Positions 21,632-34,501 of a DNA stretch of 64,000 nt are shown in pieces. Under the pieces are notes generated by a model. It did not search any database and was not told where the DNA came from. It saw only the letters and a list, made by a program, of their open reading frames with translations. Position 1 is the stretch's first letter. The number at the start of each line of letters is the position of its first letter. The stretch comes from Candidatus Palauibacter soopunensis (GTDB taxonomy: Bacteria > Gemmatimonadota > Gemmatimonadetes > Palauibacterales > Palauibacteraceae): the NCBI RefSeq assembly GCF_947581735.1, contig NZ_CANPVT010000002.1, positions 315,511 to 379,510 of the forward strand, given 5' to 3'. Both the position numbers and the translations under genes were made by a program.

Positions 21632-23353
21632 TCAGCCGCTGATCTCGTGTGCCTCGCCGGCGCCCCGCGGCAGCCGGATCCGCTCGACCAGCCGCTGCGC
21701 CTCCGGCGGGGGCGCCGGCGTGAAGCGGGACACGACGATCGCCACCGCGAAGTTCACCGCCATCCCGATGGACCCGATGCCTTCGGGTGAGATTCCGAAC
21801 CACCAGTTCTCCGCCACGTTGGCGGCCGGGTTCACGAACTTGAAGTAGACGATGTAGGCGGCGGTGAGCGTGATCCCGCACAGCATGCCCGCGATCGCCC
21901 CCTCTCGGTTGAGCCGCTTCGAGAAGATGCCGAGGATGATGACGGGGAAGAACGACGACGCCGCGAGCCCGAACGCGAACGCGACGACCTCCGCCACGAA
22001 GCCCGGCGGGTTGATGCCGAGGTATCCGGCCACGAGGACGGCGAGTCCGGCGCTCACCCGCGCCGCGATCAGTTCTCCGTGTTCGCTGATGTCCGGCCGC
22101 CAGTTGCGCTTCAGCAGATCGTGGCTGATCGCCGCCGAGAGCACGAGCAGCAGTCCGGCCGCCGTCGAGAGCGCCGCCGCCAGTCCGCCCGCCGCCACGA
22201 GCCCCACCACCCAGTTCGGCAGCCGGGCGATCTCCGGATTCGCGAGCACCATGATGTCGCGGTCGATCGTGAGCTCGTTCTGCACGGGAGCACCCGCGGC
22301 GTCCACCGCCTCCGGTCCCACGTACTGGATCAGCCCGTCCCCGTTGTGGTCCTCGTACGAGATCAATCCCGTCGCCTCCCACTTCGTGAACCACTCCGGC
22401 ATCTCCGCGTACGGCTGGTCCGTCACCGTGTTGAGCAGGTTCGTCCGCGCGAACACCGCCACCGCCGGCGCCGCCGTGTACAGCAGCGCGATGAACACGA
22501 GCGCCCAGCCCACGCTGATCCGCGCGTCCCGCACCCGTGGCACCGTATAGAAGCGGATGATTACGTGCGGCAGCCCCGCCGTCCCCACCATGAGCGCGGC
22601 CGTGATCGCCAGCACGTCGAGCGTCGACTTCGTGCCGTCCGTGTAGGCCGCGAACCCAAGCTCCTGGTGCAGGCCGTTCAGGCGGTCGAGCAGGAACGTC
22701 CCCGTCTCCTGCTCCGCCGCGCCGAGCCCGATCTGGGGAATCGGAATCCCCGTGACCAGCATCGACAGGAAGATCGCCGGCACCATGTACGCGAAGATGA
22801 GCACGCAGTACTGCGCCACCTGCGTGTAGGTGATCCCCTTCATCCCCCCGAGCACCGCGTAGAAGAAGACGATCCCCATCCCGATGACCACGCCCCAGAC
22901 GATGTCGATCTCCAGAAAGCGGCTGAACACGATCCCCACGCCGCGCATCTGGCCCGCGACGTAGGTGAAGGAGACGAAAATCGCGCAGATCACGGCCACG
23001 ACCCGCGCCGTCTGGGAGTAGTAGCGCTCGCCCACGAAGTCCGGGACGGTGAAGGCCCCGAACTTCCGCAGATACGGGGCGAGGAGCAGCGCCAGGAGCA
23101 CGTAGCCGCCCGTCCAGCCCATGAGGTAGACGGAGCCGTCGTAGCCCAGGAAGGAGATGATCCCGGCCATCGAGATGAAGGAGGCGGCCGACATCCAGTC
23201 CGCCGCCGTCGCCATCCCGTTGGCGAGGGGATGAACCCCTTTGCCCGCGACGTAGAACTCGCTCGTGGAATGGGCCCGCGACCAGATCGCGATCCCGATG
23301 TAGAGTGCGAACGAAAGCCCGACGAGCGTCGCCGTCCACTGGAGAACCGTCAT
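21632..23353 (-). CDS. actP: Cation/acetate symporter (sodium:solute symporter family).
   Basis: Strong similarity to ActP (13-14 TM, GxxxG-rich); paired with the upstream DUF485 gene. Confidence 0.9.
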   Translation of the reverse strand: MTVLQWTATLVGLSFALYIGIAIWSRAHSTSEFYVAGKGVHPLANGMATAADWMSAASFISMAGIISFLGYDGSVYLMGWTGGYVLLALLLAPYLRKFGAFTVPDFVGERYYSQTARVVAVICAIFVSFTYVAGQMRGVGIVFSRFLEIDIVWGVVIGMGIVFFYAVLGGMKGITYTQVAQYCVLIFAYMVPAIFLSMLVTGIPIPQIGLGAAEQETGTFLLDRLNGLHQELGFAAYTDGTKSTLDVLAITAALMVGTAGLPHVIIRFYTVPRVRDARISVGWALVFIALLYTAAPAVAVFARTNLLNTVTDQPYAEMPEWFTKWEATGLISYEDHNGDGLIQYVGPEAVDAAGAPVQNELTIDRDIMVLANPEIARLPNWVVGLVAAGGLAAALSTAAGLLLVLSAAISHDLLKRNWRPDISEHGELIAARVSAGLAVLVAGYLGINPPGFVAEVVAFAFGLAASSFFPVIILGIFSKRLNREGAIAGMLCGITLTAAYIVYFKFVNPAANVAENWWFGISPEGIGSIGMAVNFAVAIVVSRFTPAPPPEAQRLVERIRLPRGAGEAHEISG

Positions 23354-23643
23354 GCCGCGCCCTCCTCGTCACGCTCGTCGACGTCGAACTCCCGGTCGAG
23401 CCGGTTCATGAGGAAGACGTAGACGAAGATGAGGACGACGAAGACGTAGATCGCGCCCTGCTGCGCGAACCAGAACCCGAGCGGGAAGCCGGTCCCCGGG
23501 ATCCGGACCGCGTCGAGCGCGTCCGCGAACACGATCCCGGCGCCGTAGGACACCAGAGCCCAGATCGCGAGAAGGATCCCCACATAACGGAGATTGCGGC
23601 GCCAGTACGCCAGATGATCGCGGCCTGCTGCGGGTCGATTCAT
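23350..23643 (-). CDS. DUF485 (YjcH-like) small inner-membrane protein accompanying ActP.
   Basis: ~97 aa, two TM; ATGA overlap with actP. Confidence 0.85.
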   Translation of the reverse strand: MNRPAAGRDHLAYWRRNLRYVGILLAIWALVSYGAGIVFADALDAVRIPGTGFPLGFWFAQQGAIYVFVVLIFVYVFLMNRLDREFDVDERDEEGAA

Positions 23644-23763
23644 GGGTCTCCCAGCGTGCGGGTCCGAACTTCCACGGGCTGCCAGGACTTCACTTCAGCG
23701 ACGCCCAAGGCTGCGGCCCGGCTGGGCGGCGCGCCAGTGTAACGCCTCGCGCAGCGACGGCGG

Positions 23764-25449
23764 CTACCAGAACACGCCGAACACGAGCCAGGCCGAGATG
23801 GCGGCGAGAACTCCCGTGTAGAGCGCCGGGCTGGCCAGCAGCGGCACGCGTTCGCTGAAGGGGTGGAGGCGGATCGGACCGAGTTCGCCGGAACTCTTCG
23901 CCAGCCAGTCGTCGGCGCGCGGGGCCGACGCATCGCCGCCGCCCGCCCCGATACCGGCCGTCCCGCGCCAGCGCGGGAGCAGCGCCGCGAAGGCGCAGCC
24001 GGCGGCCGTGAAAGCCACGGCCCACACGAACGCCTCCCACTGTCCGGTCAGCCAGGAAGGCAGCCACGAGATGTCGATGACCTCGCGATCCACGAAGCCG
24101 ATGACGCCGTACAGCCCTCCGGTGGCGAGACCGGCCATCCCCACCCGCCGGTTCGAGCGCGTGACGGCGCCGACGAGGTAGACGATGAGAAGCGGCGTGA
24201 CGAAGACGGACGTGACCGAGCGGAAGGCGGCGAGCATCGTCGGCGCGCGCAGGATCAGCGGCAGGTAGGCGAACCCCAGGACCAGGATCGCGACCGTCGC
24301 GATGCGTCCCACGCGGAGGTAGTGGGCGTCGTCCCGCTCCCGCGAGATGAAGCGCGCGTAGATGTCGCGCGTGAAGACGGCCGACATCGACGAGCCCATC
24401 GAATCGAAGGTGCTCACCGCGGCGCTCACCACGCCGGCCACCACGAGTCCCTTGGCGCCGATCCCGAGATAGGTGGAGATCAGGTGCGGGTACATTTCGT
24501 CGGGCCGGGCGAAGTCCGGGAACTGCGCCCGCCCGAAGAGCCCGAGCATGTCCGTGAAGAGCAGGATGACGAGGCTCACGCCGGCTCCCAGGACGCCGGC
24601 CATCTTCATGTCCCACAGCGAGCGGGCGCCCATCATCCGCTGGGTGGACGTGTGGCTCACCGTCCACCAGCCGGAGGAGATGAGAATCCACGCGATGAAG
24701 ATGACGGCCGGCGACGTGGTCCCGTCCCGTCCCCGGAAGGCGCCCACGTGGACCAGGTCCGCGGCGGCGAGGCCCGGCGCGAGTCCCTCGGCTGTCGTCC
24801 CCAGGCCTTCCAGTTGCGCAACCATCGCGTCCCAGCCGCCCACGGCCTGCCAGACGGCGATGCACACCGCGAGACCTCCCGCCATCACGAGCACGCTCTG
24901 CAGCACGTCCGTCGCGACGACCGCCCGCAACCCGCCCACGGCGGTGTAGACGCCCGACAGGACGACGAGCGATACGATGAGCGCCCAGGACAGTTCCGGT
25001 CTCAGTCCGCCGACCCCCACCAGGGTGAGATGGACGGACCAGATCATGAGCCCCAGCACGGAGGTCCGGTACTGGATCTGGATCAGCGCGCCGAGGACGC
25101 GCGTCCCCGGACCGAAGCGGTGCTCGAGGTACTCGGAGTTGGTGTACAGTCCGGCCCGGTAGATGGCGGGGACGATCACGAACGTGGCGATCGTCACCCC
25201 GATGAGTCCGCCGAACGTGTGCGCGGAGAGGAAATGCAGGCCCTCGCTCGCGATCGTCCCCGTGGCCGACACGAACTCCGAGTTGTCCATGTTGGTCGCG
25301 AAGAGGGACAGGCCGACGGCCCACCACGGCAGCGCTCTCGAACTCAGGAACCACTCGCCGCTCGTGGAGGTGCCGCGCGCGCGGCGCAGCCCGTAGGCGA
25401 TGATCGCACCGTTCAGTCCGAGGACGATCAGCCAGTCCAGGGCGCTCAA
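23764..25449 (-). CDS. Sodium:solute symporter (SSS) family transporter.
   Basis: SSS family signature regions; ~560 aa polytopic. Confidence 0.85.
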   Translation of the reverse strand: MSALDWLIVLGLNGAIIAYGLRRARGTSTSGEWFLSSRALPWWAVGLSLFATNMDNSEFVSATGTIASEGLHFLSAHTFGGLIGVTIATFVIVPAIYRAGLYTNSEYLEHRFGPGTRVLGALIQIQYRTSVLGLMIWSVHLTLVGVGGLRPELSWALIVSLVVLSGVYTAVGGLRAVVATDVLQSVLVMAGGLAVCIAVWQAVGGWDAMVAQLEGLGTTAEGLAPGLAAADLVHVGAFRGRDGTTSPAVIFIAWILISSGWWTVSHTSTQRMMGARSLWDMKMAGVLGAGVSLVILLFTDMLGLFGRAQFPDFARPDEMYPHLISTYLGIGAKGLVVAGVVSAAVSTFDSMGSSMSAVFTRDIYARFISRERDDAHYLRVGRIATVAILVLGFAYLPLILRAPTMLAAFRSVTSVFVTPLLIVYLVGAVTRSNRRVGMAGLATGGLYGVIGFVDREVIDISWLPSWLTGQWEAFVWAVAFTAAGCAFAALLPRWRGTAGIGAGGGDASAPRADDWLAKSSGELGPIRLHPFSERVPLLASPALYTGVLAAISAWLVFGVFW

Positions 25450-25492
25450 GGGATGGAGACGCTCCTGTCGTGAGGTTGCCGCGGTCGGGCAA

Positions 25493-25655
25493 AGTGTCGT
25501 GTCCCGGAAATACCCCGGCTATTCGAGCGCCGATGCATCCGGCTCCGCGGCGTTGCTCCTCCTCGAAATGACGCTGCCATTCCTCGTCGGAGCGCCTAGC
25601 GGAATCCGGCGCCTCGGCACTCTCGGTAGCTCGTGTATTTCCGGGACACGACACT
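25493..25655. repeat. 163-bp intergenic element bounded by perfect 21-bp terminal inverted repeats (AGTGTCGTGTCCCGGAAATAC … GTATTTCCGGGACACGACACT); MITE-like or a large regulatory hairpin.
   Basis: Seen directly: 25493-25513 is the exact reverse complement of 25635-25655; the interior is also imperfectly palindromic. Confidence 0.5.
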
Positions 25656-25715
25656 GGGCGTCCGCTACCGTAGCCGGCGCCCCGCCCGACGGTCAACGGC
25701 GGCCGCTCGGGTCGG

Positions 25716-27020
25716 TCATGCGGCGGCCGGCCGGGCCGGCAATGCTGCCGCCAGCGCGCGGTCGAGATCCTCGACGATGTCGTCGATGTGCTCGATGCCG
25801 ACGGAGAGCCGGATCGTCTCCGGACGCACGCCCACGCTGAGCTGCTCTTCCTCGGTGAGCTGCCGGTGCGTCGTGGACGCCGGGTGGCACGCCAGCGACT
25901 TCGCATCCCCGATGTTCACGAGCCGCTTGAACAGCTCGAGCGCGTCGTAGAACTTCACGCCCGCCTCGAAGCCGCCCTTCACCCCGAAGGTCAGGATCCC
26001 CGAAGCCCGGCCGCCCAGGTACTTCAGGGCCAGCTCGTGGTACGGATCGCCCGGCAATCCGGCGTAGCTCACCCACTCCACGGCCGGGTGGTCCTTCAGG
26101 TGCTTCGCCACGGCCAGCGCGTTCTCGGAGTGGCGCTCGATGCGGAGGTTCAGCGTCTGGATCCCCTGGATGATCTGGAACGCGTTGAAGGGCGAAATCG
26201 CCGACCCGGTGTTCCGCAACGGCACCGTGCGCGCCCGACCGATGTACGCGGCCGGCCCCAGCGCCTCCGTGTAGACGACCCCGTGGTAGCTGGGTTCCGG
26301 CGTCGTGAACTGCGGATAACGGATCTCGTGCTCCTCCCACGGGAATTTCCCGGAATCGACGATGGCGCCGCCGAGTGAGTTGCCGTGGCCGCCGATGTAC
26401 TTCGTCAGCGAATGCACCACGATGTCGAACCCGTGTTCGATCGGCTTGAGGAGCGCGGGCGTGGCGACCGTGTTGTCCACGATGGTGGCGACTCCGTGGG
26501 CGTGCGCCACGTCGGCCACCGCCGCGAGGTCTACGATGTTGCCCGCCGGGTTCCCGATGCTCTCGACGAACACCGCCTTCGTGCGGGCATCGATCAGCTT
26601 GGCCAGATCGTCCGGGCCGTCGCCTTCGGCGAAGCGCACTTCGATCCCCAGCTGCGGCAGCATGTGGGCGAAGAGCGTGTACGTGCCGCCGTACAACTGG
26701 GGCACCGAGACGATGTTGTCCCCCGCGGCGGCGAGATTGAGGATGGAGTAGTTGACCGCTGCGCTGCCGGAGGAGAGCGCCAGCGACGCCAGCCCGCGCT
26801 CGAGCTGGGCAATCCGCTCCTCCAGCACGGCCTGCGTGGGGTTCATGATGCGGGAGTAGATGTTTCCCTCGACCTCGAGGTTGAAGAGGTCCGCGCCGTG
26901 CTGCGCGTCGTCGAACTCGTACGCCACGGTCTGGTACAGCGGCACCGCGACGGCGTGCGTGGTGGGCTCGGACTCGTATCCGAGGTGAATCGCTACTGTT
27001 TCGTCTCTCATTGGTCTCAA
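25716..27020 (-). CDS. metY: O-acetylhomoserine aminocarboxypropyltransferase (O-acetylhomoserine sulfhydrylase), PLP-dependent.
   Basis: Cys/Met-metabolism PLP family; HSLTKYIGGHG PLP-lysine region; ~434 aa. Confidence 0.9.
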   Translation of the reverse strand: MRPMRDETVAIHLGYESEPTTHAVAVPLYQTVAYEFDDAQHGADLFNLEVEGNIYSRIMNPTQAVLEERIAQLERGLASLALSSGSAAVNYSILNLAAAGDNIVSVPQLYGGTYTLFAHMLPQLGIEVRFAEGDGPDDLAKLIDARTKAVFVESIGNPAGNIVDLAAVADVAHAHGVATIVDNTVATPALLKPIEHGFDIVVHSLTKYIGGHGNSLGGAIVDSGKFPWEEHEIRYPQFTTPEPSYHGVVYTEALGPAAYIGRARTVPLRNTGSAISPFNAFQIIQGIQTLNLRIERHSENALAVAKHLKDHPAVEWVSYAGLPGDPYHELALKYLGGRASGILTFGVKGGFEAGVKFYDALELFKRLVNIGDAKSLACHPASTTHRQLTEEEQLSVGVRPETIRLSVGIEHIDDIVEDLDRALAAALPARPAAA

Positions 27021-32902: not shown

Positions 32903-34501
32903 TCACGGCGTGCCGGCGCGCAGGCGCCGCTCCCAGAAGTCGAGTTGGGCCGTGCGGAGTTCGCTTCCCGCCTCGACCGTCGGCCCCAGCACGAGATGGG
33001 CCTCGGAGTCGCGCGTGTAGGCCGGCCACGGCGGCAGCCCGGGACCGTTCGGATCGCCGTTCGCGGCGAAGTTGACCCAGTAGGAGGACATCGTCTCCGC
33101 CAACCGGCGGTCCACCGCTTCCCGTTCGCCTGGACCGACGTTGCCGAAGGCGTACACGATCTCGGCCGCGTGGTACGACTTGAGATAGTCCTTCGCGGGC
33201 CCCGGCGGCTCGTGCGTGAAGTAGTAGAGCCACGCATCCGCGCCGGCGGCTTCCGACGCCCGCGCCCACGTCCGCATCTGGATGCCGAACAGGGCGTCGC
33301 CCCGGCTTCGCATGAAGGCGTCGAAGATCTCGCCCTCCTCCTTCACGGGGTAGGCGGCGTCGAAGCTCTCCGCATCGTCGCCGACACGGCCCGCGACCCA
33401 CTCGCGCCACGCGTCGAGCGTCTCCGGCACGGATCTCGGGGACGAGAGGGAGGTCATCTCATCGGCGTTGAACCCGACGAGCACCGGGACGTTGTTGTGT
33501 GCGCCCCCGGCGAACGCCGTCGTCACGTCCGTCGGCAGCACCCAGCCGTCCACGTTCTCCGCCGTCCTGAAGCCGCGCCCGGCCGGCGTCTCGAGCCCCG
33601 CCATCACGCTCGCGGCGGAGAGCCGCCGCATGTCCTCCAGCGTCTCCGCCCCGAGCGCCCCGAAGAACGCCGCGCCGATCTCCTCCGCGGAGCGTCCGCC
33701 CTCCGGCGCCTCCGAAAGGCGCATCATGGGCCCGAACCGCCCCCCGCTCTGCCCGATGGCGCGGTGGAAGAGTCCCGCCGCCAGCGGCGTCGCCATCAGC
33801 GTGTTCACGCTCCACGAGCCGGCCGACTCGCCGAAAATCGTCACGCGGTCCGGGTCGCCGCCGAAGCTCGCGATGTTGTCGCGCACCCACTCGAGCGCGG
33901 CGACCTGGTCGAGGACCCCGTAGTTGCCGGACGATCTGTGTTCGGATTCGGCCGTGAGGAGCGGGTGCGAGAGGTAGCCGAACGGTCCGAGCCGGTAGTT
34001 GATCGTGACCACGACCGCGCCCTTCTCCGCCAGTGCCGTCCCGTCGTAGATGCCGGTGGAGCCGGACCCCCGCGTGAGCGCGCCCCCGTGGATCCAGACC
34101 ATGACCGGCCGCCGCTCCGAGGCGTCGGCGGCTCCGGTCCAGACGTTCAAGTACAGGCAATCCTCCGCCGTCGGGGCGGGGGGACCTCCGAAGAACGAGC
34201 CCGCGCCGTAGGGGGTCTGCATGCACTCCGGCCCGAAGCTCTGCGCGCGCAGCGTCCGCCGCCCCCACGCTTCGACCGGCTGGGGCGGCTTCCAGCGCCG
34301 GTCCCCCACGGGCGGCGCCGCGAAGGGAATCCCCTTGTAGGAGCGAATCCCGTCGACGAGGAGGCCGTCGACGTTCCCGCTGGCGGTCTCGACGCGGGTC
34401 TGCTGCGCGAGCAGCGGCGCCCTGAAGCCACCGACGGCCAGGGCGACGAGCAGGACGCGGGCCAAAGTGCGAACCGGATGAGCGCGAGAGTCACGACGCA
34501 T
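32903..34501 (-). CDS. Carboxylesterase type B (para-nitrobenzyl esterase-like), secreted.
   Basis: GESAGS active-site Ser; cholinesterase-family N-terminal Cys region. Start set at the internal ATG at 34501; the track's 872-aa ORF extends spuriously upstream. Confidence 0.85.
   Translation of the reverse strand: MRRDSRAHPVRTLARVLLVALAVGGFRAPLLAQQTRVETASGNVDGLLVDGIRSYKGIPFAAPPVGDRRWKPPQPVEAWGRRTLRAQSFGPECMQTPYGAGSFFGGPPAPTAEDCLYLNVWTGAADASERRPVMVWIHGGALTRGSGSTGIYDGTALAEKGAVVVTINYRLGPFGYLSHPLLTAESEHRSSGNYGVLDQVAALEWVRDNIASFGGDPDRVTIFGESAGSWSVNTLMATPLAAGLFHRAIGQSGGRFGPMMRLSEAPEGGRSAEEIGAAFFGALGAETLEDMRRLSAASVMAGLETPAGRGFRTAENVDGWVLPTDVTTAFAGGAHNNVPVLVGFNADEMTSLSSPRSVPETLDAWREWVAGRVGDDAESFDAAYPVKEEGEIFDAFMRSRGDALFGIQMRTWARASEAAGADAWLYYFTHEPPGPAKDYLKSYHAAEIVYAFGNVGPGEREAVDRRLAETMSSYWVNFAANGDPNGPGLPPWPAYTRDSEAHLVLGPTVEAGSELRTAQLDFWERRLRAGTP

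Follow-up and report, generated by a model that had tools for sequence, protein, structure and literature searches.

In the stretch of DNA analyzed here (64,000 nucleotides with a G+C content of 69.6%; hereafter, the window), the genes for MetY and for an SSS transporter lie on the minus strand with a short element between them, which is the gene context described in the original prediction. The two co-directional genes are separated by a 266-bp spacer; the element resides within it, 61 nt past the metY stop codon and 44 nt ahead of the transporter TTG start. The transporter protein is 85-93% identical to symporters of Candidatus Palauibacter and other Gemmatimonadota. The features of the region are as follows (loci from other genomes carry L numbers).

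23764-25449, minus strand: sodium:solute symporter (SSF/SSS) gene, downstream of the insertion (TIGR00813, 177 bits; PF00474 on homologs)
25447-25466, minus strand: Shine-Dalgarno sequence AGGAG (25466-25462) and TTG start codon (25449-25447) of the SSS gene; TTG is also called in the ortholog L052, and the block is conserved
25492-25493, no strand: left target-site-duplication position, AA, one base off the canonical TA
25494-25654, no strand: 161-bp core of the element, in all likelihood a non-autonomous IS630-family MITE; 97.5% (157/161) identical to the family consensus and absent from the orthologous site of L052 and L056
25494-25513, plus strand: left terminal inverted repeat GTGTCGTGTCCCGGAAATAC, 20 bp, the same as the terminus of the full-length L022 and L034 elements and of about 30 short elements
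25635-25654, minus strand: right terminal inverted repeat, a perfect inverted copy of the left repeat
25655-25656, no strand: right target-site-duplication position, TG, one base off the canonical TA
25667-25696, minus strand: inferred promoter-like sequence, TTGACC (25696-25691), 18-nt spacer and TACGGT (25672-25667), conserved in L052 and L056
25716-27020, minus strand: MetY-type O-acetylhomoserine sulfhydrylase gene, upstream of the insertion (TIGR01326, 631 bits, cut-off 495)

The element begins 11 nt downstream of the promoter-like TTGACC-18-TACGGT and ends 26-27 nt upstream of the transporter Shine-Dalgarno sequence. Both hexamers and their spacing are kept in two relatives with the orthologous region, L052 (2920-2949) and L056 (109-138), the spacer sequence itself being different in L056; a stricter sigma-70 consensus scan of 25300-25900 called no promoter, this one included. 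The sequence suggests that the SSS transporter might have its own promoter, with TTGACC-18-TACGGT as the candidate. The transporter Shine-Dalgarno sequence is enclosed by a palindrome, GGAGCGTCTCC (25455-25465), which is conserved in L052 and L056 and could form a hairpin that occludes the ribosome-binding site independently of the element. Directly downstream of the transporter (21632-23933, minus strand), there are genes for a 97-aa DUF4212-type protein and a second symporter, which belongs to the VC_2705 family (TIGR03648, 870 bits); the order of the three genes, for the SSS transporter, the DUF4212-type protein and the VC_2705 symporter, is kept in all relatives compared.

The perfect 21-bp inverted repeat that first drew attention to this spacer is present as described: positions 25635-25655 are perfectly reverse-complementary to AGTGTCGTGTCCCGGAAATAC at 25493-25513. 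Even a search that tolerated 3 mismatches found no third occurrence in the 64-kb window; no matches were found in dinucleotide-preserving shuffles (n = 100), and the chance expectation is 0. The inverted repeat extends imperfectly to 29 nt, with 90% complementarity, and the interior, which had been recognized as self-complementary, pairs in its entirety, yielding a single long hairpin. The predicted folding energy of the 163-bp hairpin is -119.6 kcal/mol (z = -10.9) for the minus strand and -104.9 kcal/mol (z = -6.9) for the plus strand; the 161-bp core alone, on the would-be mRNA strand, gives a self-contained hairpin of about -108 kcal/mol. When the window is set beside about 30 other copies, the transposon proper is seen to be the 161-bp core at 25494-25654, bounded by the 20-bp inverted repeats GTGTCGTGTCCCGGAAATAC; the flanking A 25493 and T 25655 belong to the two TA target-site copies, as the inner base of each. 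An assembly artefact is unlikely because a Logan assembly (L060, run SRR10996926) is 100% identical to the window across 3136 bp, element included; the assembly and the window possibly share their sample of origin.

The view that the element has no credible coding capacity holds as well: the sole overlapping ORF (44 aa) results from reading through the inverted repeat, and its Arg/Ser-rich product is not protein-like. This ORF (25446-25580, minus strand) has its start within the element and crosses the inverted repeat in the frame used by the transposase (…ISGTRH, see below), running on because the usual TAG is missing and the flank is TT, and its TGA stop codon overlaps the transporter TTG start (TTGA). 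The arrangement is probably a coincidence, with the ORF start located within a stable stem.

To explore the distribution of the repeat, we searched for the exact 21-mer in 185,579 species-representative genomes in one scan. The search retrieved 54 ends at 51 loci from five phyla, namely, Acidobacteriota, Gemmatimonadota (Palauibacter and Longimicrobiales), Thermodesulfobacteriota, Gammaproteobacteria and Eisenbacteria MAGs; no match was found in the viral contigs scanned with the 21-mer, that is, there is no sign of phage carriage. The base preceding the 21-mer is T at 48 of the 54 ends, and the preceding dinucleotide is CT at 45 of these 54. The second end of complete elements, which is often slightly mismatched, was located for 29 elements, and in 24 of these, the flanks have the form cTA[GTGTCG…CGACAC]TAg, which indicates that the transposon begins at GTGTCG and that TA is duplicated within CTAG. 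Such duplication of TA inside CTAG is a hallmark of IS630. Among the remaining copies, one flank is mutated in five, and both are mutated in one (L026 5021-5230, CA/TG). The original prediction proposed to recognize a transposon by further copies and target-site duplications: further copies exist in related genomes, and TA/TA in CTAG flanks 24/29 complete elements from the scan; the flanks of the window copy itself are AA and TG.

Next to the 21-mer, at least 8 unrelated groups of sequences can be distinguished over the phyla. Specifically, at least 8 unrelated short elements, 124-232 bp long, with an identical 20-nt terminus and CTAG/TA flanks are found among loci L001-L051 in Acidobacteriota, Gemmatimonadota, Thermodesulfobacteriota, Proteobacteria and Eisenbacteria, which implies that the terminus has been reused repeatedly. 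Several other ends, L017 7264-7284, L018 7412-7432 and those in L015, L025 and L032, have the same flank in different species and lose the MITE resemblance after 18-30 nt; this pattern suggests old ends, either truncated or solo, that have persisted through speciation. We also considered L010, L017, L018 and L021 as candidate ends of a longer parent element in Gemmatimonadota, and rejected this assignment as the sequences start MITE-like and then diverge. The interiors of L010, L021 and the L017/L018 pair are mutually unrelated, with only L017 and L018 matching each other, as would be consistent with one locus in two species, and none of the four loci contains a transposase; these are probably truncated copies.

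The same ends enclose a single 362-aa ORF in two full-length elements, L022 3945-5087 (1143 bp) and L034 1808-2953 (1146 bp), with the window repeat identical to one end of each in 20/20 positions. The ORF product matches the NCBIfam model NF033545, ‘IS630 family transposase’ (263 bits, cut-off 100), and combines N-terminal Pfam HTH_23/28/29/32 domains with DDE_3 (75-78 bits). Homologs of this transposase number at least 8000 proteins with E below 1e-30; the top matches all come from soil Acidobacteriota (Terriglobales, Sulfotelmatobacter) and are named IS630 family transposase by NCBI, and no Gemmatimonadota partner transposase is found among them. A PGAP-annotated IS630-family element on a Methylibium plasmid shows 67% identity, the same layout and 16/20 identity in the inverted repeat. 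IS630-family elements target TA and move by cut-and-paste, with a helix-turn-helix that binds the inverted repeats and a DDE transposase (PMC2170065); a CTAG preference in members of the family was described by Tenzen and Ohtsubo 1991, as cited in PMC2170065.

The right repeat of the full-length IS encodes the C-terminus of the transposase, ISGTRH: the ORFs of L022, L034 and the Methylibium element all have the ending …ISGT(R/G)H followed by TAG, and this terminating TAG consists of the duplicated TA and the G of the CTAG target. The transposase ORF has no stop codon of its own and reads through the right repeat in L022 3942-5087, L034 1808-2956 and L061 229-1392. For IS870, the supply of the stop codon by the CTAG target is attributed to Fournier 1993, as cited in PMC13630536. 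The 20-nt terminus may be constrained twice, as the transposase binding site and as the sequence coding for the C-terminus, which would explain its identity across phyla.

The closest relatives of the window copy are nine 161-bp sequences (L005, L006, L011, L029, L030, L045, L046, L049 and L050), and more divergent variants of 160, 161 and 229 bp are found in L014, L007, L004, L028 and L037. The flanks differ among all family copies, which occupy unrelated loci in MAGs of Palauibacter and other Gemmatimonadota, and copies with perfect ends number 1-4 per MAG: L011, L030 and L046 come from one MAG, L005 and L045 from another, and L029 and L049 both reside on one complete chromosome. Any two of the ten close copies are 88-98% identical, and the window copy matches their consensus in 157/161 positions (97.5%); within the 64-kb window, no further copy was detected with up to 6 mismatches. 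A 24-nt stretch, GTGTCGTGTCCCGGAAATACGCGA, is common to the family consensus and the transposase-3' end of the full-length IS; it includes the 4 nt inward of the right repeat (GCGA in the consensus, ACGA in the window), and the window copy is identical in 23/24 of its positions. Past this segment, the MITE interior is unrelated to the full-length IS.

Searches for IS630 transposases with tblastn (E up to 10) yielded only noise in the window, with two transposases as queries, and no transposase in 17 loci from Gemmatimonadota, each covering 8 kb. Every exact 21-mer site on the two complete Gemmatimonadota chromosomes of the collection is a MITE end. Two further candidates for transposase or IS remnants were discarded on inspection: a weak tblastn match at 33101-33205 of the window is not an IS end, and in no reading frame do the 68 bp by which the 229-bp variant (L004, L028, L037) is longer resemble the transposase C-terminus, except for the repeat-encoded ISGTRH. 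Eight of the 15 family copies (L004, L006, L007, L011, L014, L045, L046 and L049) directly abut the stop codon of a gene, and at these copies, the TAG stop is rebuilt from the duplicated TA and the first G of the element. The window contains 9 CTAG sites in a genome of about 70% G+C, where most of the targets on offer seem to be TAG stop codons. A Palauibacterales genome paper does not mention transposons or mobile elements.

Two relatives provide a view of the site that lacks the element: in both L052 and L056, the metY-SSS junction is found without exactly the element segment. The DNA that flanks the element on the transporter side is 94-95% identical between each of these loci and the window, and on the metY side, L052 is about 91% identical, with L056 stopping short of this side. 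The transporters are identical to that of the window at 93% of the positions in L052 and at 98% in L056, the latter over the 78% of the query that is covered by the homolog P0011. The asd-metY-SSS gene order is kept in L052, and L056 starts in the spacer just downstream of metY. The empty site in both reads …GCTACGGTGGCG..CG.CC, then about 10 nt, then CGGCAACCTCAC…, from which it follows that the element is an insertion in the window lineage and that its boundaries coincide with the repeat ends to within a few bases. Neither TA nor CTAG is present at the corresponding position of the L052 and L056 empty sites; given the AA and TG flanks in the window and the absence of TA in the relatives, the junction is not reconstructible exactly. 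By comparison with other copies, it is plausible that AA and TG are TA copies with one post-insertion substitution each, although two changes in 4 flank bases is a high count for a copy that is 2.5% diverged from the consensus. In L057 (2976-3038) and L058 (1238-1300), the leader and the 5' portion of the SSS gene have been lost to a deletion, so that the remaining gene call encodes 402 aa, and a GC-rich hairpin, CCGGCCCTCCGCGG…CCGCGGCGGGCCGG, fills the deletion; this hairpin is also present upstream in L056 and is absent from the window.

Two alternative explanations compete with a MITE. The inverted repeats could belong to a long, non-mobile hairpin that evolved in place, acting as an intrinsic terminator downstream of metY or as a site of RNA processing; this was the alternative put forward in the original prediction, and it would fit a very stable fold between co-directional genes. 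Such a hairpin, however, would be expected neither to recur as the same 161-bp sequence at about 10 unrelated loci of other genomes, with TA duplications, nor to be missing from the orthologous site in relatives, nor to have the ends of a transposase-bearing IS. The scan of 25300-25900 revealed no terminator pattern, the stem of about 63 pairs being followed by UUU only (UUUG), and a permissive scan of Rfam 15 gave only chance-level matches (12-17 bits at best, E-values of 2.8-6.7), far under the gathering scores of 41-65. We consider this explanation very improbable, and it is not needed to account for the sequence. It is harder still to credit that the two 21-mers are an operator pair, 142 bp apart, through which a transporter or methionine regulator would act by DNA looping. 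There are indeed two identical 21-bp sites in a promoter-proximal region, but the identical 21-mer is found in five phyla, both beside unrelated genes and at the ends of IS elements; in the full-length IS, it doubles as coding sequence for the C-terminus of the transposase. The sites are, moreover, absent from close relatives with the same operon.

By contrast, these observations fit an element with termini common to transposase-bearing IS630-family elements, copies at unrelated sites and empty orthologous sites, and the MITE reading that was initially offered as one of the options is upheld. We are thus highly confident that the element is a MITE, a 161-bp non-autonomous derivative of an IS630-family IS from the IS870-like, CTAG-targeting clade. 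As selfish DNA, the element is of an ordinary kind and belongs to a class that is already known.

A distinct question is whether the MITE has acquired a function, and exaptation is compatible with the MITE origin of the element. If TTGACC-18-TACGGT is the transporter promoter, transcription starts a few bases before the element, placing the whole hairpin at the 5' end of the leader; the element would then be transcribed within the transporter 5' leader and form a long hairpin, with a possible secondary effect on the transporter mRNA. That the MITE has been exapted in this manner, as the first part of the leader, with the hairpin controlling the fate of the mRNA, appears unlikely to us, and the same holds for the modes that can be envisaged, namely, RNase III cleavage, as in the Correia/NEMIS elements of Neisseria, 5'-end stabilization, or attenuation of metY read-through. 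The case for it consists of the position of the element between the conserved TTGACC-18-TACGGT (11 nt away) and the Shine-Dalgarno sequence (26 nt away), the self-contained hairpin of about -108 kcal/mol, the precedent of the Correia elements (PMC2229807), and the conservation of the fold: 94% of cells pair across 12 copies, and compensatory changes are detected in 10 of the 63 pairs, compared to 3.8 +/- 1.5 in column shuffles (0/500 reach 10) and 3-8 in slid controls. The would-be mRNA strand also folds 6-21 kcal/mol better than the complement in 14 of the 15 copies, the sole exception being the 229-bp variant L004, where this difference is absent. Close relatives, however, live without the element, the hairpin leaves the Shine-Dalgarno sequence and the start codon unsequestered, and compensatory changes could also come from DNA-level constraints or subfamily descent in a palindromic transposon. 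The better-folding strand is a family property, and the orientation of the 15 copies relative to the neighboring genes is mixed; with 14 of the 15 copies behaving alike, we rejected the folding asymmetry as a sign of RNA selection at this locus. We attribute the fold conservation to the transposon family, or to its descent; it does not speak for a function in the metY-SSS spacer.

Near the apex of the hairpin, a purine-rich 16-nt sequence, GAGGAGGAGCAACGCC (minus strand, 25548-25563; alignment columns 94-110), is almost invariant in 12/12 aligned copies. It is far more conserved than the remaining interior and is kept even in the divergent copies L007 (62% identity overall) and L014. Together with the compensatory changes in 10/63 pairs and the G·U pairs, which are consistently on one strand, this invariant segment underlies a more far-reaching scenario, in which the fold-back of the MITE family would itself be under selection and would have been co-opted here to give the SSS transporter a structured leader, acting as a switch based on RNase III or on stability. 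We deem this combination quite doubtful.

Among the described elements, the closest analogue is RUP of Streptococcus pneumoniae, a 107-bp MITE present in about 108 copies, with repeats that match IS630-Spn1, its proposed partner, and insertion at TA (PMC2229807). The two elements have in common their short length, lack of coding capacity, IS630-family repeats, mostly intergenic location, presumed mobilization in trans and, for the family of the window element, insertion at TA. They differ in length (107 vs 161 bp) and host (Firmicutes vs Gemmatimonadota), and their sequences are unrelated; unlike RUP, the window element has a repeat that matches an IS terminus in 20/20 positions, and its family has a longer target, CTAG, and an apparently low copy number, with 1-4 perfect-ended copies per MAG. 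The full-length relatives resemble IS870/IS630 in their size of about 1.15 kb, the single HTH+DDE transposase and the TA target within CTAG, and resemble IS870, so far as its published description goes, in the stop codon derived from the target TAG. Compared to these relatives, the window element lacks the transposase gene and has only about 24 nt in common at each end. The Correia/NEMIS elements of Neisseria (about 107 or 155 bp), which are often co-transcribed with neighboring genes, are the best-studied case of hairpins that affect neighboring transcripts via RNase III (PMC2229807). These are similar to the window element in size, inverted repeats of about 20-26 bp and the potential to form a long hairpin if transcribed, and to its family in TA duplication; their sequence is unrelated, however, and the scan of the window element detected neither an IHF site nor an outward promoter. 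PMC2229807 names no cognate transposase for Correia, whereas for window-type termini, one is evident (L022, L034).

By the mechanism established for IS630-family elements, the element is, or formerly was, probably mobilized in trans. A transposase supplied in trans, with an N-terminal region that binds DNA by a helix-turn-helix and with catalysis by a DDE domain, would bind both 20-bp terminal inverted repeats and cut the element out by double-strand breaks; the excised element would be pasted into TA, preferably within CTAG, with duplication of the TA. The window copy most likely entered the leader region of the SSS transporter in the Palauibacter-like lineage of the window, after the split from the relatives that are about 5% divergent in the flanking DNA.

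With respect to annotation, the appropriate label for this sequence is an IS630-family MITE insertion rather than a regulatory RNA or a terminator, and it is a repeat able to break short-read assemblies. The insertion represents a recent polymorphism among close sponge- and marine-associated Palauibacter lineages. On a broader scale, one widespread IS630 clade has given rise to many independent MITE families. Should the fold-selection and co-option scenario prove true, the element would be a Gemmatimonadota counterpart of Correia-element regulation; the insertion between a promoter-like site and a ribosome-binding site is a natural experiment on the effect of a 161-nt leader hairpin on expression.
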